Origin: Ionaspis alba
Lineage: Eukaryota
Reading direction: 5' to 3'
DNA length: 64,000 bases
NCBI GenBank assembly: GCA_964255285.1
Contig: CAXUUL010000002.1
Location: forward strand, 62,001 to 126,000
Under the pieces are notes generated by a model. The model ran no database searches and was not told the origin of the DNA. It worked only from the letters and a program-made list of their open reading frames with translations. Position 1 is the stretch's first letter. Each line of letters opens with the position of its first letter. A program made the position numbers and the translations under genes. Below are positions 39,013 to 62,298 of the stretch, piece after piece.

Positions 39013-39427
39013 ATGTGGGACTGTTGGGAATCCTGCTCTTCTGTGTACATAACTCTTCTGTTAGGAGTGACATCTGGGGTGCTACAGGCATATGTCAGGA
39101 CATCGACTTTCGACATGCCTGTGCAAGCACTGCTATTCATGTAAATAGTCGAATTTCTGGATCGGTACTTGACTTCTATGCTGTGATCTATGCCTATGAC
39201 ATCGATCGTTCGACCTTGCGATACGGGTTCAAAGTCACAGAAGGAAGACTGTTCAAGCGATTGTAAGCAGTTGAATGTTGCATCAAACGTGGACGTGTTG
39301 ACGGCGAATGAAACCACGTGACTGCAAAGTATCGCCAAGAATGATTCCCACTAGCCGCGGCATCTTCCGTAAGCCTCTCTACATGATGAACAACTGCTCA
39401 TCACCCATTCCCCTAAGTCCCACAACC

Positions 39428-40864
39428 ATGCCTTCTGCCGACTCTCTTCTACCTACTAACGCCTCCACTGCCATCTCCGCTACCTCGCTATCCTCATCGC
39501 CCTTCTCTATCTCGTTGGCCAAAACAAAACCATCGAAAGCAGTAGCTAACCCGCGAAAGCGGCCACGCTCCTCTTTGGCAGATGAGTCGGACTCAGATTA
39601 CGACACCAACTATCCTGGCACTCAGTCTGTCTCTAGTTTCGATCGTTCAGCGGGAGGTGCGATCGGTTTCGACTCTAAGAAGCGCGATGCAAATACACCA
39701 CTTGTCATCACAGCGCAGAAAAATCGTGATTGGAGGGCCGAAAGTAGTCGGAAGAAAGGACGGAACCTACTGCCTGCGGAAGAAATAGCGAGACGAGAGA
39801 GGCAGACGACAGGAGAGCTTGGGGATACCGGTCCGAAGCCTCAGATATATGGGCTGACGATCCTGAAGAAGGAGGACGCAGAGCCAGACATAGACTGGGA
39901 CGGTGGGATGAGGGAACCTACAAATAACGAAGTGGCAAACGAGGAGCCTATGACAGCAGATGAAGAGGCTGTTGCGGCGCTGATGGGAGCTCAAAGGCGG
40001 AAAGAACTCGTAGTACCCGCTGTCAACAGTGAAACAGAGGAGAACGGTCGCTTTACAGGACGAGCAGGCGGGACAGGTGCCTACGAAGAGGATGCCTTCA
40101 AATCCGATGTGGCCTCTCGTCCAGATTCGGCGAGCTTGGACGACTATGCTGCAGTGCCAATAGAAGAATTCGGCGCTGCGTTACTACGGGGCATGGGCTG
40201 GAAAGAGGGCGATGTGGTCGGCAAGCGGAAAGACCGGGTGATCAGGCCTCGGGTGCTGGAGCGCCGGCCGCAGCTACTAGGATTGGGAGCCAAAGAGGTA
40301 CCCGAAGGACTGGAGGAGATCGGAGGAGCGTGGGGAAAGGCGGCAAAGGGCAAGAAGATGTCTAACAAAGGTTTTACCCAGATGCTGCTGAAGAATACCA
40401 AGACTGGTGAACTGCTGAGCGAGGAGGAGTTGAAGGCGAAGAAGGAACAACAGGCTGTTATTGTCGATGGTTGGAGAGAACGAAGAGATCGGAATTTGGC
40501 GGTCGATGAGAGCCGGAAGGTGGACAGGAAAGAGCGGAAGAGTGAGAGAGAGAGGCATGGCGAGGGAAATCGGCACAATTATTCGAGACGGGATAGGAGT
40601 CGATCTTGGGGTCGGAAAGGAGACCGAAGGCGGGATCACACAGATGATCTTGATAGTGATCGACAGGATCGAGACAGGGAGCGGAGGCGTAGAGAGATGG
40701 AAGCAGAAAATGATAGAGATGGAGAGCGGTCATCGAAGCATGAGCACAGGGGTCGGCGGGACTACGATTATGAGAGGAGCAGCTATCGCTCGTCCGCGGG
40801 CAGGCATGGTAAGAGGGATGAACGCGATGAGCACCGTTCACGGCGAGGGCAAGAGGTCTATTAA
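39428..40864 (+). CDS. SPP2: Pre-mRNA splicing factor Spp2/MOS2-type G-patch protein
   Basis: Long ORF with DYAAVPIEEFGAALLRGMGWKEG and RRPQLLGLGA (Spp2-type G-patch) and an R/D/E-rich tail. Start taken at ATG 39428; upstream in-frame ATGs exist. Confidence 0.85.
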   Translation: MPSADSLLPTNASTAISATSLSSSPFSISLAKTKPSKAVANPRKRPRSSLADESDSDYDTNYPGTQSVSSFDRSAGGAIGFDSKKRDANTPLVITAQKNRDWRAESSRKKGRNLLPAEEIARRERQTTGELGDTGPKPQIYGLTILKKEDAEPDIDWDGGMREPTNNEVANEEPMTADEEAVAALMGAQRRKELVVPAVNSETEENGRFTGRAGGTGAYEEDAFKSDVASRPDSASLDDYAAVPIEEFGAALLRGMGWKEGDVVGKRKDRVIRPRVLERRPQLLGLGAKEVPEGLEEIGGAWGKAAKGKKMSNKGFTQMLLKNTKTGELLSEEELKAKKEQQAVIVDGWRERRDRNLAVDESRKVDRKERKSERERHGEGNRHNYSRRDRSRSWGRKGDRRRDHTDDLDSDRQDRDRERRRREMEAENDRDGERSSKHEHRGRRDYDYERSSYRSSAGRHGKRDERDEHRSRRGQEVY

Positions 40865-43330: not shown

Positions 43331-46202
43331 CTAGACCATCACCGTAGCTTTACCATTGACCTCAATGGTGCAGTCGACGAAGCCGATTTCTTCCATTTCT
43401 CGTAGTGTGTAGTCCACCAGGTAGCTCTCATCCACAAGTTCTTCCATTCGCTTATAATGTCTTTCAGTATATGCTTTCAAGCCCTCTAATACTTCCTTCA
43501 AACCACTTCCTTTACCCTTCCTTCTCAATCCTATCAATCGGCTTGCAGGGTAGCACTTGACGAGGACCCATAGTATTCTCTGTGCCACCGGTGCAGTCCT
43601 GGCATTCGTGTTCCAATCCCTAATACGTAGCAACAGTGTGAACAACTGCTCGTCGCCAAGGTGTTGTAGCACTTCATCCACTGCTTTGAGGCCAGACAAA
43701 GATCCTTCTTCTGGAGGACTCGTATTCATTACGTTGGTGAACAAAGCCAGCAAGCGAGCTGGATGGTTCATTTGCAAAGCAAGCGTAATTGCTTCTCGGT
43801 AGCTCCTTTTATGGATGTAGTTCTGAAGTGCTTGTTCCTGTTCCACTCGAGCCGTTGAAGCCGCAGCAGTCGCTGCAGCAGTTGAGGAAGTGGTATTTTT
43901 CCAGAAAGTGATGACACTGTCACTGCCTCCGGAGACCAGAGTATTATCCTCGGTATTTACAGTCAATGCCCAAACCCGATCGGTGTGGTTATCGAGAGTG
44001 CAGTTGCATTCACCAGTCTCGGCATCCCAGATTTTGACCAGCCCATCTCCTCCTGAGCTTGCGAGCTGCACTCTACGTTTTCGGCTCGAGTGCGAAGTTT
44101 CTGCGTCATTGACTTGCTGGACGAATGGCATCCAAAGTGCTCTTAGAACGCTATTGGTGTGTCCTTCCATAGTGCGGAGACAGCTGTAGTCGGCAAGATT
44201 CCATATCTTGATCGCCTTGTCACCGCTCCCGGTAAGTACCATACCTCGACTACCACTATTTGGGCCGCTCTCCCCAGTAATTTGTGACACATCCTTTGCG
44301 GAAAATTGAACGGACCAGACACCCCGTTTGTGTCCGCGAAGGACGCCTTGGACTTCGCCATCTTCAACAGACCATATCTTGACAGTCCGATCCTGGGACG
44401 CGGAAGCGAATAGCGTAGAGGTATGGTTGAGGGCAATAGCGTTGATATCTTTATCATGAGCCTTGCGAGTGTAGATAGCTCGCGGGGTCTTCTTATCAGA
44501 TTGGGATGACTGCTTTGGCAAAATATCCCAGCGTTTGACAGTGCGGTCTTGTGATCCGGTCAGGAGGAACGCCGGTGGATGCAACAAAGGATCACTGCGA
44601 GCTGCTGAATCATGAGAAGGAGGATTGTTTGGCAGAGAAAGCGCGCCGAGTGATTCAGCATGTCCAGTGAAAGTTGCGAAGCTCTCGTACGAGCCACTCG
44701 CGTGGTCGATTCGCCATAGTCTCGCAGTATTGTCCTTGGCTCCTGTAGCAAGCCAGCAACCCGACCAGTCCACAGCTAAGCAAATGACGATGTCTTCATG
44801 ACCTTGCAAGAGCGCAACGTTTGCGCCGAAATATTGCCCTTCCCTAGGATGATCTGCTGCAGAGCCGATCGTTGCTAGGGATACTAACCGAACATCTTCG
44901 GAATTTGTTGCCAAAGCCAAGAGCTCTCTGTTGGGGGTGACATAGGAAACATCGATAATCTCGTCGTGAGTCCCAGAAATGCGGCGGAGAACAGGTAGTG
45001 GCCCAGTTTTTCCTTCAATTCCTACCATTAAAGAAGAGAGAGAATGTAGAACTAGGCTCTGGTCTGCATGAACGCATATCAAGAAGTTCAGGCGTGCGTA
45101 GTAGAGTATGTGTATGATGCCATCAGCCTCTCCCCTTGCTTCTTGCTCTTGTGTGATCTCCCTCCCGGATTGAGTATTCCATATGCGAAGCAATCCGTTC
45201 TCACCTCCTGTGTATATGAGGGCACCGTTTTCTAGAAATCCCACACTCTCCAGCCCTTCGAGGACGGGGATGACTTTCTTGACTTTCCAACTTCTGGCAT
45301 CCCATATGATCGTGGTCTTGTCGCGGCTTGCAGACACAAGTGCATTTTCCTCTAGTGAGAAACTCAAGCCACGGACAACTGAAACGTGTGAGTCTAGAGT
45401 TGACGTAGCTTTACGATTGACGAGGTCCCAGATCCTGATTTTCCCATCCTCACTCCCCGATGCCAATCGTAAGACATTCCGATCATTGCGCTTTGCTTCC
45501 GAGCCGTCGTACATCTCATCATTAACGCTTCCACTACTGGATCTTCTCTCCTTGCGCCTATTCTTGCTCGATCTAATAGCCCGATCGTTCGGCTCAGACG
45601 CCTCAAAGAACAGCAGGGCAGAGATGACTCCGGCATGCCCTCGAAAAGTATGAGTTGAGAAGCTACCACGGATATCCCAGACCTTGACGACCCCCTCAGC
45701 TCCACCTGTTGCCAGCAAAGTACCTGTAGCATCGACCGCAACTGTGACGACCGGACTTGTGTGCGGCCGCAACGTTCGTTGCAATGTTTTGTGTATTTGA
45801 AGAGGGGTGTCGTCGATTATCTGCAACGAGTAAACTCTCATAGACAACGATCGCGAGCAAGTAATAAGATGAGAGGCGGAGGGAGTAACTATAATTGAAA
45901 TTAGTAGGAACGAAGTGTACTATTCAGGACTACTTACTCGCCAGAGTGGTTAGGATTTCCCCATCCTAATAAGAATTCAGTCATCGAGCATGATGGGTCT
46001 GCTGTCAAGGCTCAGGACTTACCCCTTCCACTCGCACAAGTAGCTGGCCACTGTTGAGGTCAGTAAGTACGGCATCTTCGCCTAAACACGTCACTAGGAT
46101 CTGCCCGTTGCGATCAAGGGCAACATCGCCGCCTGTGTATATTGGCTGAATGACTTTGTCCGGCTCAAACGTTGTGGTGACAGCCGGTTTAGTAGTCATC
46201 AT
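43331..46202 (-). CDS. UTP13: U3 snoRNP/SSU processome WD40 protein Utp13
   Basis: Introns 45966-46022 and 45889-45937 around a 28-nt exon. N-terminal PIYTGG, many WD repeats (AHDKDIN, GHKRGVW, GHTNSV, HTDRVWAL) and a Utp13 tail (EQEQALQNY, RDWNTNAR, YTERHYKR). Confidence 0.95.
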
Positions 46203-50873: not shown

Positions 50874-52511
50874 TCACACCCCATTCTTCTTCTTGACATC
50901 CTTCCTCCGCTCCCATACCATCAAATAGCTTTCCTTTGTAAACAGCGTTTCCGTAGCAACTTTCTCCACATAAAGATCTTGAATTTCCAACCACTCATCT
51001 CTAGCTCGATCTCGCACCTGAGCTCGCCACACCTTCTTCTCTGCCTCCCCTTCCACGCTGTCGTCTCGGATCCTGACAGCTTCGTGAGTCACGTTGGCAA
51101 CAAGGTCGTACCATATTGGCTCGCCTGGTGGGTGGAGGGACGGATTGGGCTCGACGTATGGTGACATGTCGAGTGATCTTACAGGGAAAGTGACGATTGT
51201 GGGATTTCGTTCAGACACGAACTTGTTCTTGGAAAAGCGCTTGATATGGAAGAGGAGATAGGGTGGGAGGGGATGTAATAAACGGTAGCGTTTCCGCGTG
51301 TTGAGATGTTCTTGAGATTTCAGGCCGTCGTATTTAGAAAGGATGGAAGTTAAGGGCACCTGTACTGGTCAGTGTTGTTAGCGCTAAAACAAGAGATGTG
51401 GCTTACTTGTGGAATGATATTCTTATCCAGCTCATCCTGGAACAGAGGTGCAGCAGGGAGATCGAGAGTAAGCATGAGATATCTACTAGTATCTACCAAG
51501 ACCTCGGCAGCTTCTTCAAACCGAAGTCGATCGCCAGCATCTGCCTTTGCGGTGATTTGCTGGCTCTCCACCTTTAGCTTCCCCTGAAACACTTTGTGAA
51601 TGATGCTAGTACCTGGCTTTGTCTTGCTGCCACCCAAAGCGAGATGCAGATTGTTCAGAAACCAGCTCAGGAACTCGACCGGATCTGACTGGTGTAGGAG
51701 GTCAAATCGCTTCTGTGACTGTCTGGAAACCTGCTGGAGAAGTTCGTGCGGGGAGACGTGGGATTTGAAGGCTCGGGTGTTCCAAATCTTCCGGACGAGG
51801 ACGGAGAACCTCTGCACAAGCTCACGTGATGTTGAAAAATCCTCGAGCATAAGAAAGTTTCGAAGAGGAGGAATGTGCGACAGTGCTTGGACAACGACAT
51901 TGAAGTAATCGTTGGCCTTGATATTATTCATACCGACGAACCCTATAGGAACCGAATCAGTCAAATGCCCGTCAACAGAATGGTACCAACATACCAGGCC
52001 TATATGTCTTCCCCGCCAAGTCCCATGCGTCCTTCACCTCCTTATCCAGTCTCGTGACTTCCTCCTTCGAAAGTCGAGGATCAACCACAAACTTGATGTC
52101 GTCCAAGCTTTTGCTCTTTACCTCGTAGCCCTCTGGAAGAACATAGACCTTCTTCGTCTCCATATTAACGTGTACATGGTGACCAACTTCAAGGGCGTGG
52201 AAATATGCATGCGACTTGGGCCCCCTGCCCTGAAAGTATTTTCCGCACACCAAGCAGGCGTAGACATTGATGTTAGAGAGAGTCACGGAGCATAGTTTTT
52301 CGAAGTCGAAGTCGAGGACGGAGCGATCGATTGTATCTAGATATAGGTCTGCGTAACCTTCGAGAGGAGCAGCTGGGGTTGGTCGTGAGGGAGCTATGGC
52401 TGGTTGATCTTCCTCATCAATTTCAGGTGGATTCATGCGGATCTTCTTGTTAGATGGAGAGCCATTAGTTATAGAGGTTTCTAGCAGCACTTCTGCTGGT
52501 CGTTTCGTCAT
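50874..52511 (-). CDS. SAD1: U4/U6.U5 tri-snRNP protein Sad1/USP39 (ZnF-UBP plus inactive USP domain)
   Basis: Introns 51943-51994 and 51360-51406. Motifs LDFDFEKLCSVTLSNINVYACLVCGKYFQGRG, GMNNIKANDY (Asp in place of the catalytic Cys), FKSHVSPHE, ERNPTIVTF, WLEIQDL. Confidence 0.95.
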
Positions 52512-53074
52512 TCTGTTGGTCGGAACAGCTTTGATACTTTGCGGTTCTGAACGTCCACTGATCGTTAATCAGGCGTGTCCCGCGGGCAATATGCTTGACG
52601 GCCCGACAGTTTCTCCTTCATCCTTACTTCTCATAGCCCTGTCATGGACCGACGTTGTCTTCAACCACCCTCTCTAAGTGCATGATGCATTATCTAGATC
52701 CGGGATGAGTCACAGGCTCGATCAGCACAATTCCTTTTCATGATTGGCGAGACTTAGTAGAACAGTCGAAGATTCCGTAAGGCCATTGAGGTGATACCTT
52801 ACAGTATGCAACGAACCCCGTGGACCATAATGTGGATGATATTGAAGTTTTATAGGAAGGAACCACTCATAGCATAGCCAAAGACCTAATATAGAGGATA
52901 TAGCTTTTGTGATTACTATTATAACAGACTAACAGAGTGGTATCTAGCTACAGAGCCACAACGCCGTGATTCAATGGTCATTAACTATTAATGTCGTATA
53001 ATCTTGTGACTCATTGGACATTCATACATGACCGGAAAACACCCCTCGGTCGTACATCATTAAGAACTGTAGAC

Positions 53075-54929
53075 TCATACAAGAGCACTGATAATTATTA
53101 GCTACTTTCCGGGTACTAGAACAATAAATATCACTCACCCATTAGGTCGGGAAGGCGGAGAAGTATTCGCGCCAGTCAGATTCAGGAAATTCTTGGTATT
53201 GCCTGCAGCATTGCCCTTAGTTGGGATACCCTGAGCTTTGCAGATCCTGAGATGTTGATCAGGGATCTTCTGCGTGTCTTGCAAGATCAAAGGAGATTCG
53301 ATGAAGGTGGCTGTGAGACCGGCTTCGACGTGCCATTCGATGTGACAGTGGAACAGGAACACGCGTGAGCAAAGAAGTCAGCGGAGTGCATTTATTCAAC
53401 AGCAGACAGGGAGACTTATCAGGATTGTCGGCTTTGAACCTAAGAACCACATGGCCAGATCCCTCCGTCTTGACGACATCGCGCCGTATGGGGGTACGAG
53501 GGAATCCACCTTTCCGTCCAGGGTACGGACCTGCACCTTTCTCGGATCTGGCAATGACCTGAAACTGATGCCCGTGGAGATGCATTGGGTGTCCACCGCC
53601 ATCGGCGTTGTTGATAACTAACTCAATGATCTCGTTCGGTTTGAGCACGAAGGCGTTCGAGTTCACTCCGTAGACAAGAGGGTTGGCGGCGTCCTTGCCT
53701 GTTGTCATAGCCGTGTAGAGTGTTGGTACCTTTTGTTCAAGGTAGGTTACACCGTTAAATACCGCCCTGAAGAATGCGTTAATTGACAGTTTCAATGGAA
53801 TTAGATCTCTTGAGTTGTACTAACCTGTTTGATCCCTCGATGGTTTCGAAATCAAGATTTAGAGTAACAGTGCGATCGACAGGTCCAAGCAATTTTTGAC
53901 CGTCTTCAGGTTTCAGAAGGAAGTCATCAAAACCACTCTTTGGCGCGATCTCGGGAGGGCTGCGTGGAAGTGGCGCATAGTCATCATAGACAAGATAGCC
54001 TGTCACGTTGGGTTTCAAGTCGGTGGGTATAGAGTCGAACATGTCCTGGTCAAAAGCACCCAGGAATGCATAGTTCTTCTTTGGATTCCCCTTTGCTTCG
54101 ATAATGACACTATATCGCTGCGCAGTGGTGACATAGATTGTATCGGTCTTTTGTTTCTCGGTGTACACTCCATCGACCTCGACGATTGTCATAGGATGGT
54201 CATCAAAGTGGACGTATTGCGCAGCAAACGCGGCCATGTTGATAATTCTGACGAGATATTTCCGGCCCGGCTTAAGGTGGAACTTGATGTTTTGGGCATC
54301 GTTCATGAGAGCAGTCTTTGGTACAGGCTCGCCTCCCTCTGGATTTGCAGTGTTCGAGACATAGAAGTTGATGAGGCCAGGCATTTGTTCATGGTACCAG
54401 TCCGAAAGTGTCAAGACGAGCTCCTCGTCATAGTCATGCCTATACGGAGATTGAGGATCGTGGATGATGAGAGGCCCTCGAAGGCCATCAGGATACTGGC
54501 CCTTATTATGAGAATGATACCAGTATGTACCTGATTGATTTACCTGGCCCAACTCGTCAGCATCCGCTGGTCAAATGTAAAAGTGGAGGTACTACTTACC
54601 ACGAAATCATAGGTGAATTTCGATCCTGGCGGGATGGGGCACTGGGTGACACCACTCGGTCCATCCATAGCATTCGAGCCTTGTTGGAAAAGGCCATGGA
54701 AGTGGAGACTGGTGCTCTCATTTCCCAGGCTGTTTGTGACATCGATAACAACGCGGTCGCCAACCGACGCCTCGATAGCGGGACAAGGCCACTTTCCGTT
54801 GATACCAATGACAGGTCTTTCCAGCAGACCATCCGGGTTAGCCTTGACCCACGAGATGTCCCAGTTGTACCTAACGACGTCCGCCACAGCCAAGTGCAGG
54901 AACAGAAGGGAGTATAGTATAATATTCAT
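53075..54929 (-). CDS. Secreted Fet3-like multicopper oxidase (ferroxidase/laccase family), no C-terminal TM anchor
   Basis: Signal peptide and all four Cu motifs: [24 protein letters not shown]...L. Introns 54544-54599, 53767-53824, 53365-53419 (AT-AC) and 53088-53138; ends ...PNGALV*. Confidence 0.92.
53365..53419 (-). other. Non-canonical AT-AC spliceosomal intron (55 nt, U2-type signals)
   Basis: Minus strand: AAT CCT G|ATAAGTctcc...ccGCTGACttctttgctcAC|GC GTG TTC CTG TTC CAC TGT CAC. Removal restores [16 protein letters not shown]. Confidence 0.85.
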
Positions 54930-60111: not shown

Positions 60112-61698
60112 TCAGTCATTATCAAGAGATATACCTCCTATTCGCCGGTCAATAGCTTCCATTGATTGAGCTCCTTGACCTCGTTGCTTCCACGGCAAAC
60201 TGTCCATGTGTTTCCGAGCACTGAGACTTATGCACAAAGTAGGATCAAGGCTCTTGAGTCCAGGTTCCTTCATTATTGCCAGAGCGGCAAGGCCAAAATA
60301 CGAGTGCAGTATGTCTGACCGAGAAGAGTCAGTGGCCAGTCAAGGTTCTGTGGGACAAGGCGGTCGATGAAATCCATGAGACATACCAGGAGGATCTCCG
60401 GGTAATTTTCCAAACCCGCCGATCACATGCTGCGTTTTGTCCAGCAGGAACCGTCGGTTTGCATTGAAATCAAGGAGGTGGACTTTCTTCAGGATCTATG
60501 AACCGTTAAAAGGACGCCTGTGATATAGCTAAATGCAGTGTTCTTACAGCAAGAGTCCCTCCTACCCAGAAGGAGTAACACGTGTCCGCGACTTTGTTGC
60601 ATCGGCCATTGAAACCAGCCCATTGTATATCCTCGGATGGGTGGTTCAGAGATATAGTATCCGAGCTAGCAGGAGCTCTTGAGCCTAAGTCAAGATAGTG
60701 GTGCTCATCGCTGTCATGCCCGTCGACAGAATTTCCCTCTTCCTCAGGCTCATTGTCCTCCTCATCCTCACACAGCACCGAGGTTTGCCTCGATACTAAC
60801 CAGTGCAAGGTCTCATGCACAAAACTCGGACTCGTGGCTGGTTTTGGATTTGAAGCCGCATCAGGGTCGGGTAACCTTCCTAACAACGATAATGCCCCAA
60901 GGCCGCAGTACGTCCATCCAGCTGCATTTCCACACATGAGTAAGGGCAATTATTTTCACCCTGCAGCACAGGCGACGAGGTGCGTACCGTGGGCTTCGTG
61001 GAAGGGAGCTTTGGCTATGCCGCCCTCAAAGCTCTGATCGCATTAGTACAATTGCCAAATCCTTCCGAAAGTCCACATTGTAGTACCTTAGATGCCGTAA
61101 CGAAACTTGCCAAAGCTTCAACATCAATATCCGGGACATCTGTATCCGAACCCTGCCTCCCATCCCTCAAGATCCACCGAACCAGCGCAGCCAGAAAACA
61201 ATATCTCACATCCTGCCCGCCCTCAATCTTGCCACCTTCTCCCAGAACTTCTCCAAAACTTCCATCCCCACATTGTAGCCTCCTCAACCACTCCAAGCAC
61301 TCCTTCCTCTTCACTCTCTCCCAATCATCCCCCAACACAGCCAACGCCGCCAGCGCAAAATAAGTACCCGCCAAATTCGCCGGATCCCAATGTCGGTTTT
61401 CCTCATTCCTCATCGCATCCCCAAAGTTCGTGCCAGTGAAGCCTCTGAATCCTCCATCGGGGTGCTGACAGAGATAGATCCAGTCGATGAAAGCTGCACG
61501 TTCGGAAGCTGTGCTTTTTTCATGCAGCACGCCGAGGAGATCGAGAGCTGAAACGGTGAAGTAGGCTAGTGTCATGCGATTCGAGTCGTTGGAGGTGTAG
61601 GCAGTTGGGAGGTAGGATTTCAGACAGCGGAGCCAGTATTTGATGTGCCGCTCCTTATTGAAAATTGATTTGTCGGGGGTGGAGGGGATCGATGGCAT
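60112..61698 (-). CDS. CDC43: Geranylgeranyltransferase type I beta subunit
   Basis: Introns 61034-61086, 60922-60987, 60496-60547 and 60315-60386. Motifs HIKYWLRCL, DSNRMTLAYF, DVRYCF, HEAHAGWTYC, FNGRCNKVADTCYSFW (Zn ligands D and C), DILHSY (Zn ligand H). Confidence 0.93.
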
Positions 61699-62298
61699 GT
61701 TGTGGACATTCTCGAGTACGAGCTTAGCACTAATATATTGGTTTCATTCTGCTGGAAGTCAATGAAGGAGCCATTGAAGGATGCTCTAAGGCCAGTCAAA
61801 GATGGTAGAAGAGCACCCACAGCGTGTTACACATAAATAGGGCTGGAGCATTGACCAATCGGCAATACCTCTCCCTGACCAAGCCCTAATTGTTATGGTA
61901 CCTGAAATTGGCGTGAGACCGGAGTCCATTCTCGACAAGATACCTGTGATGAAAGCAGGCAAGACTATGAGAAAGGCAGTATGAGTATAGTTAACTACAA
62001 ATATACGGTACGGTCAGACCGGAGAACCTGAAGCGCCATAAAGGCAACGAAACTGTCTGGGAAGAGCCCCTTATAATATTAACCAATTACTTCACGGCCC
62101 GCAAGGATGCTTCTGTTTGTGCAACGACACCAATATAGCCCTAAATGCTCCTCTACCGTCTACTTCATGGCCGAAGAGCATGCTGGGATGGCCTTTACCC
62201 ATGTCATAGCCATGTTCGCAATTGCATGCCATGATTGGAATCGCATTACAATGATGAAATAGACAGTCTTATTAATTCTAAGCTAATGCTAATATTAC

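Follow-up and report, generated by a model that had tools for sequence, protein, structure and literature searches.

Which spliceosome could remove an intron that begins with AT and ends with AC, in a fungal gene whose copper site is encoded only once that intron is gone? The question is raised by a gene for a Fet3-like multicopper oxidase on the minus strand of a 64,000-nucleotide stretch of Ionaspis alba DNA (NCBI GenBank assembly GCA_964255285.1, contig CAXUUL010000002.1, positions 62,001 to 126,000 of the forward strand), the whole of which is called the window below. The third intron of this gene (53365..53419, minus strand) is 55 nucleotides (nt) long and lies in phase 1; it reads ATAAGTCTCC...CCGCTGACTTCTTTGCTCAC, with boundaries required by the reading frame. 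On the evidence set out below, the element at 53419..53365 is very probably a real, spliced intron of the type II (U2-dependent) AT-AC class.

Splice signals of the AT-AC intron

The 5' splice site, ATAAGT (53414..53419, minus strand), is the U2-type GTAAGT with A at position +1, and corresponds to the strong /ATAAGT consensus reported for U2-type AT-AC introns, the donors of the U12 type being given as /ATATCCTT (PMC5029451, PMC1557818). The branch site is an ordinary GCTGAC (53377..53382, minus strand), in which the branch A (53378) is separated from the 3' end by 13 nt, and the 3' splice site is CAC (53365..53367, minus strand), the counterpart of YAG. The upstream exon reads ...GCC GAC AAT CCT G up to 53420 and the downstream exon GC GTG TTC CTG TTC CAC TGT CAC ATC GAA TGG CAC from 53364, such that exact removal joins ...AATCCTG (53420) to GCGTGTTCC... 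(53364). DNPG followed by HCHIEWH in frame is obtained solely with the boundaries 53419..53365. Positions 3-110 of the Pfam Cu-oxidase_2 profile fall in exon 3 and positions 112-135 in exon 4, and therefore exactly one codon is split between the two pieces. Reading through the intron gives ADNPDKSPC..., with a stop after 53 codons and loss of HCH. The interval from the branch site to the HCH codons is free of AG, and the next AG would give an acceptor 42 nt into the exon, past HCHIEWH; the junction pattern matched once in the window and never in 100 shuffles.

An earlier sequence-only reading of this DNA had drawn the 55-nt ATAAGT...GCTGAC...CAC intron at 53365..53419, and had held that its exact removal restores the copper-ligand frame, that no AG intervenes before the HCH codons and that the rest of the gene is intact. 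All of this was borne out, the spliced coding sequence (CDS) giving 541 amino acids with all four copper motifs and remaining open to a TGA at 53137..53135. The same reading had matched the length of the intron to those of the others in the gene, which is correct for two of them (56 and 58 nt), but the gene has three introns and no more.

A sequencing or assembly error at both ends of a true GT-AG intron is barely conceivable, even though the intron is covered by a single assembly-level record that is possibly the window's own source. That record, from run X1, is an identical 15.4-kb contig that spans the intron at a word depth of 127 with no differing letters; two specific compensating errors 54 nt apart would be very unlikely, and the AT-AC state recurs in unrelated assemblies. 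The pieces from run X2, identical and of low depth, leave 53347..53621 uncovered, and those from run X3 are fragments of other organisms only. One of the latter (record 15, a 968-nt contig of depth 4.2, at 53326-53432 of the window) aligns over 53326..53353 and then from 53409, a skip of 55 nt that equals the intron length with an offset of 11 nt and with only 24 letters on one side. The match may be due to chance, or to a loosely aligned homologue in another organism that is spliced or lacks the intron.

The intron shows the features expected of the U2 type, i.e. ATAAGT except at +1, an ordinary GCTGAC branch site and AT-AC ends at frame-required boundaries, and we infer that the major spliceosome is used and that the intron is excised in the source organism. 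In such a mechanism, U1 and U6 would recognise ATAAGT, which equals the fungal GTAAGT consensus save at +1, the GCTGAC branch site would pair with U2, and the first suitable YAC, 13 nt past the branch A, would serve as the 3' site. The A at +1 and the C at the last position would then replace the two G residues in the non-Watson-Crick contact between first and last base, a contact on which the second catalytic step depends. Exact excision would put the Gly of DNPG back together and bring HCHIEWH, and with it the T1/T3 copper ligands, into frame.

The homologous intron in other fungi

The sequence-only reading had presented the intron as a one-off, and had suggested that orthologous introns be aligned for conservation of AT-AC. 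It is instead conserved in the whole Fet3-like/Abr1 family. For a sample at the DNA level, the pattern GATAWGT N{48,78} TTYCAYTGYCAYNTNGARTGGCAY was run against JGI metagenome contigs; it called for an exon-final G followed by a donor that starts with A, and for a downstream exon encoding FHCH[ILV]EWH, and placed no constraint on the 3' end of the intron. The 15 matching loci represent ten distinct sequences, and AC stands directly before the frame-required exon start in all 15, such that A at +1 is paired with AC at the 3' end in 16/16 DNA sequences when the window is counted. The upstream codons ...LRF/Y-x-[AV]-D-[NH]-P, a split codon G|G[C/T/G] for Gly and an intron of 49-58 nt were likewise present in every locus, and uninterrupted frames extend from these introns over 59-168 codons upstream and 76-101 downstream. 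A branch motif (CTGAC, CTAAC, CTAAT or TTAAC) with its A 10-13 nt from the 3' end was recognised in 14 loci, that of L014 being unclear. Counting the window, which gives 11 distinct sequences, the base before the terminal AC is C in ten and A in one, the donors are all ATAAGT or ATATGT (ATAWGT being imposed by the search pattern), and seven, the window among them, have no AG between branch site and HCH. The loci span at least three subfamilies, with HVEAGL, HV[AS]SGL or HMVSGL after the HCH motif.

These data bear on whether the oxidase gene of the window is a pseudogene or decaying copy, in which two point mutations killed a GT-AG intron and the 55 nt are retained to give a truncated protein without the T1 site. 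The early stop on read-through would fit such a copy, as would the three listed runs, none of them on record as RNA; it is nevertheless very unlikely, given that the downstream exon is intact in the AT-AC-spliced frame and that, with the three introns removed, 541 codons are open and every copper motif is kept. The same AT-AC pair is in addition found with open flanking frames in the 15 metagenome loci and in many named species, and independent decay would not repeat both compensating changes.

A view of the intron without a constraint on its donor was obtained from database proteins, as an unspliced G|ATAAG or G|ATATG would be translated as Asp-Lys or Asp-Met and G|GTAAG as Gly-Lys. We examined the best 120 Fet3-like matches, 18 matches to a read-through query (no census, as this set misses known read-throughs such as P0001) and 115 further Abr1-family matches. 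NPD stands at the junction in 55 of the 253 homologues (22%; 14/120, 6/18 and 35/115 by set), the next residue being K in 46, M in five, N in two, E in one and absent in one. The remaining homologues comprise 170 with NPG directly and then xxx-HCH, seven with NPG and another continuation, 18 without a recognisable junction and three odd ones. NPD in place of NPG is what an unspliced G|AT... intron would leave behind, and we take it as the signature of one. That gene finders would mis-model such a gene had been foreseen in the sequence-only reading, and the 55 homologues that read through bear this out directly.

Models with NPD are found in Eurotiomycetes (Aspergillus fumigatus, A. ambiguus, A. 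ruber, A. chevalieri, A. clavatus, Paecilomyces and Monascus), Lecanoromycetes (Pleopsidium, Alectoria, Peltigera and Lasallia), Candelariomycetes (Candelaria and Candelina), Geoglossomycetes (Glutinoglossum, Trichoglossum and Geoglossum), Sordariomycetes (Ophiocordyceps), Leotiomycetes (Claussenomyces) and Xylobotryomycetes (Cirrosporium), as well as in Thelocarpon and Vezdaea. By its position and predicted ends, the AT-AC intron is a conserved phase-1 intron common to the Fet3-like, helix-less Fet3-like and Abr1 oxidases across Pezizomycotina.

The same proteins argue against a U12-type AT-AC intron removed by the minor spliceosome, which we regard as extremely unlikely. The AT-AC ends and a branch site 13 nt from the 3' end would suit that type, but the donor is ATAAGT, and neither a U12-type donor /ATATCCTT nor a branch site like TCCTTAAC occurs in intron 3. 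The read-throughs give Asp-Lys, Asp-Met, Asp-Asn and Asp-Glu and never the Asp-Ile expected from G|ATATCC (0 of the 55 with NPD). An Rfam search of the window returned no match. The claim of the sequence-only reading that ascomycetes have no U12 spliceosome is supported by a survey of more than 3,000 eukaryotic genomes, which reports no convincing minor introns in Ascomycota and Basidiomycota and the loss of most minor small nuclear RNAs (PMC10639083).

The 3' end of the intron can also be read from proteins. In an in-frame read-through the codon at the 3' junction consists of the last intron base and the exon bases GN, and a regular expression for such models gave 29 rows, of which 18 were dropped as upstream NP motifs. 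Seven that start with D end in R (C|GN or A|GR) before [VI]W..HCH (P0051, P0057, P0095, P0121, P0139, P0208 and P0247) and two that start with G end in G (P0024 from Seirophora and P0060 from Caloplaca); neither a D..G nor a G..R combination was found among the in-frame models, P0143 (D..C) and P0023 (A..G) being partial or odd. P0023, from Teloschistes flavicans, has the junction DNP-APHYPNPGKTIALTPKK-GIWLFHCH. Its start, Ala (GCN), agrees with G|GT as little as with G|AT, and the model may contain a GC-AG intron or be odd in another way. The GT-AG side of this comparison consists of protein read-throughs only (P0005, P0011, P0024 and P0060). In addition, 13 frame-shifted read-throughs, from ten genes and including four A. 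fumigatus strain models, were back-translated, and each allowed one intron length, between 47 and 68 nt. The penultimate intron base was A in 13/13 and the last base C in three and C/T in ten, never G. The models of Usnea florida (P0096) and Cornicularia normoerica (P0088) evade the AT-AC intron through an invented GT-AG intron, at the cost of the RFRADNPG codons. Part of the true intron is left in them as ...PNTTSSPR, such that the 3' junction reads ...TTSSPR|IWFFHCH, with R.

Exact joining is seen in proteins of relatives. Whereas the A. fumigatus abr1 strain models P0142, P0144, P0146 and P0147 read RFRANNPDKLPSALGEMHTDLSYEFGSSTAISNG (NNPDKLPSALGEMHTDLSY...), with a 47-nt intron, a possible CTGAC and, after the intron, a frame-shifted WLIHCHIEW, the Af293 reference Abr1 (P0148, 664 amino acids) reads RFRANNPG|VWLIHCHIEWH and is joined exactly. 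This protein is continuous across the junction, and its gene model therefore presumably already removes the intron. The clearest case is P0153, an open reading frame (ORF) of 719 amino acids in which the junction reads RFRADNPG|IWLLHCHIEWH; its Logan contig, at 2,523 nt, is too short to contain introns as well. Residues 1-475 of P0153 are 96% identical to P0151, a genome model of A. ruber that reads through the site and ends ...RFRADNPDKFSNA. Other ORFs from Logan and ENA (P0121, P0123 and P0126-P0128) end at NPDK or pass in frame through the intron. They are thus probably plain ORF calls, in which case a complete joined ORF would derive from spliced RNA. Three Parmeliaceae ORFs from Logan (P0049, P0058 and P0078, the last 94% identical to Usnea P0096) are full-length with NPG|IWFFHCH, the longest contigs being 2.5-4.9 kb, and are at most suggestive of joining.

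The complete joined ORFs of Af293 and P0153 point to productive mRNA, and they count against a further proposal, an extension of the possible control point of the sequence-only reading, namely that the AT-AC intron is spliced slowly or conditionally and throttles output, e.g. in control by copper, iron or pigment stage, with the retained form as an early-stop decoy. This is speculation, compatible with excision by the major spliceosome, to which it adds a functional claim, and we consider it unlikely. It would be in keeping with the yeast data, in which engineered introns with A at position 1 and C at the last position splice in vivo and an endogenous AT-AC isoform makes up 1-2% of RPL30 mRNA (PMC5029451), with the stop 53 codons into a retained window intron, with the in-frame TAA of the L010 intron, the length of which is a multiple of 3, and with the retention of the AT-AC state in several paralogues and classes. 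However, this persistence is explained equally well by a reversion barrier of two mutations, and Teloschistales and Alternaria have GT-AG at this site with proteins that look normal, so the AT-AC state is dispensable.

Several points weigh against our interpretation of a spliced U2-type AT-AC intron. The 15 metagenome loci are mutually related and hence are not 15 independent trials, and the search pattern, having demanded ATAWGT, does not measure the frequency of other AT starts. Four of the 11 distinct sequences (L001/L003, L009/L015, L011 and L014) contain an AG that precedes the AC by 3 nt, and may use an AT-AG alternative that adds one codon. In the protein models the last intron base is mostly resolved only to 'C or T' or 'C or A'. 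None of the three listed sequencing runs is on record as RNA, and coverage of the intron comes from a single run, probably the source of the window itself; the transcript origin of P0153 and similar Logan ORFs is suggested by the size of the ORF relative to the contig. The absence of U11, U12, U4atac and U6atac, finally, would rest on the Ascomycota literature. The four sequences with an upstream AG end in ...CAG|CAC or ...TAG|AAC and all belong to an IQLFHCH sub-clade, in which the AT-AG alternative would replace Gly with two residues. Against these points stand the 16/16 DNA sequences in which A is paired with AC, the 13/13 read-throughs that exclude a final G and the joins in Af293 and P0153, all of which favour the natural U2-type AT-AC intron that the sequence-only reading had proposed.

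How old the intron might be was considered with a FastTree phylogeny of 127 rows, many of them partial and most of unscored intron state, in which the Abr1 family was not included. The window protein lies in a 19-row clade (support 96) with helix-less relatives from Pleopsidium, Glutinoglossum and Xylographa and with environmental sequences. The 30 rows scored A, from DNA or NPD, are spread over four deep clades, namely this helix-less clade, an HCHIDWH clade (Alectoria P0089), L010/L013 beside the Pezizomycetes Fet3, and the canonical Fet3 of Lecanoromycetes, Geoglossomycetes and others; four rows (two from Teloschistales and two from Alternaria) are scored G, and the 34 scored rows require a minimum of two state changes. 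The Abr1 family also carries the A state. With the AT state present in Abr1 as well as in four deep clades, and with so few changes required, AT-AC may be the old state and GT-AG derived at least twice, a reading kept tentative because so many rows of the tree are partial and most have no scored state.

The AT-AC pair could then persist as a trapped state: the single reversions, GT-AC or AT-AG, would cripple the splicing of an indispensable junction, and the pair would be kept because each one-base reversion would be defective at a junction that the enzyme needs. A bolder history, to which we give little credence, would make the intron a living fossil of the ancestral Pezizomycotina Fet3/Abr1 gene, perhaps descended from an early-fungal U12-type AT-AC intron. 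When Dikarya lost the minor spliceosome, the intron would have survived with its AT-AC ends through conversion of its donor and branch site to the U2 type, and would then have been locked by the two-mutation barrier, with rare GT-AG escapes in Teloschistales and Pleosporales.

The oxidase and the genes around it

The CDS (53135..54929, minus strand) encodes 541 amino acids with a signal-peptide-like N-terminus, three Cu-oxidase domains and no C-terminal membrane helix. Exon 1 (54600..54929, with the ATG at 54929, as read from the spliced CDS) is followed by intron 1 (54544..54599), GTAAGT...GCTGAC...CAG of 56 nt, exon 2 (53825..54543) and intron 2 (53767..53824), GTTAGT...TTCAG of 58 nt, all on the minus strand. 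In intron 2 the donor GTTAGT is a less common one and the best branch-like motif is ATTAAC rather than CTRAC. Exon 3 (53420..53766, minus strand) ends with the codons ...RFKADNP and the G of the split Gly codon, which is completed by the GC of exon 4 (53135..53364, minus strand); the latter contains HCHIEWH at 53350..53330 and runs through ...PSRPNG to the TGA. A fourth intron after ...RPNG was considered and rejected: L001, L009 and L011 likewise end in ...WG-stop and the Xylographa proteins end close by, and for this reason the TGA at 53137..53135 was taken as the stop.

The spliced protein has the Pfam domains Cu-oxidase_3, Cu-oxidase and Cu-oxidase_2, and its copper motifs are HFHG at residue 76, HSH at 119, HPMHLHGH at 408 and an HCHxxxHxxxxL-type motif at 470, the last of which is encoded only once the AT-AC intron is removed. 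It thus combines the three domains with the HxHG, HxH, HxxHxH and HCHxxxHxxxxL motifs of a three-domain multicopper oxidase. Identity is 56-61% to Fet3-like proteins and 41-50% to Abr1-type proteins. The C-terminal membrane helix of Fet3 was not found, the tail of the protein being without a hydrophobic stretch, and no FTR1 permease domain was present in the 29 ORFs of at least 110 amino acids between 39.3 and 64 kb of the window. With neither this helix nor an FTR1 neighbour, the oxidase is, judged from its sequence, therefore labelled Fet3-like rather than a Fet3 ferroxidase proper.

Directly downstream lies a gene with zf-UBP and UCH domains that is interrupted by introns (50877-52568, minus strand), an architecture which we take to be that of the SAD1/USP39 tri-snRNP protein. 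Further genes in the window encode a G-patch_2 protein (39302-40861, plus strand), a Utp13-type WD40 protein (43334-45919, minus strand) and a prenyltransferase alpha-alpha-toroid protein (60509-61743, minus strand).

Relation to known AT-AC introns

U2-type AT-AC introns are already known and the oxidase intron does not represent a new mechanism; what is added here is the wide conservation of one such intron in the Fet3-like/Abr1 family. An extremely rare class of intron is kept over several ascomycete classes and paralogues, in a group without a minor spliceosome, and sits exactly where the copper ligands are encoded. As a natural case amenable to genetics, it exemplifies the rule by which the major spliceosome pairs first and last intron bases, and it illustrates how epistasis can keep a sequence state in place. 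It is also a systematic annotation trap, in that read-through models lose or corrupt the HCH copper site, those affected including four A. fumigatus abr1 strain models and models from many lichen-fungus genomes; permitting AT-AC at this junction would repair such gene models.

In the open-access literature we found no paper on an AT-AC intron of a multicopper oxidase, ferroxidase, laccase or abr1. The paper on the Botrytis bcfet1 gene states only 'four introns', the text of a Rhizophagus multicopper oxidase preprint contains no splice-site detail, and PMC11580375, which came up as an abr1/AT-AC paper, was discarded as a false match in which 'AT-AC' is part of 'AT-acyl transferase'. As to the class as a whole, 24 U2-type AT-AC introns were reported among approx. 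610,000 introns of five species, with 15 in human, six in mouse, three in Drosophila and none in C. elegans or Arabidopsis, and the same source mentions xylanase genes of filamentous fungi as hypothesised carriers of AT-AC II introns (Sheth et al. 2006, PMC1557818). AT-AC is described as rare in fungal annotations (PMC7072748), and RNA sequencing of Fusarium graminearum reported two such introns, in FGSG_08743 (347 nt) and FGSG_10073 (52 nt) (PMC3577648). Yeast splices an engineered AT-AC intron (PMC5029451).

When these systems are compared with the oxidase intron, that of A. fumigatus abr1 is homologous, with the same phase-1 site and, by back-translation, an A start and an A[C/T] end, although the window protein is only 41% identical to A. 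fumigatus Abr1 and closer to Fet3-like proteins. The actin intron of yeast, in which a double mutant with A at position 1 and C at the last position was reportedly spliced by the major spliceosome (Parker and Siliciano 1993), has the identical compensating pair of first and last base, whereas the oxidase intron is natural and evolutionarily stable and not a laboratory suppressor. Those of F. graminearum and the xylanase genes are also natural Pezizomycotina introns, one of them of similar length, but they lie in other genes, and the available text of the reports does not describe family-wide conservation for them. U12-type AT-AC introns share the terminal dinucleotides and the short distance from branch site to 3' end, and differ in the ATATCCTT donor, the TCCTTAAC branch site and a host with a minor spliceosome. 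The U2-dependent AT-AC introns of the human SCN4A/SCN5A type are alike in their ends, the /ATAAGT donor, the ordinary branch site and conservation across distant species. In comparison with the catalogued members of this class, however, the oxidase intron is short (49-58 nt), is fungal and belongs to a host group without the minor spliceosome; it is kept across several classes and paralogous subfamilies of one enzyme family, and it lies inside the codon that precedes the copper-ligand motif.

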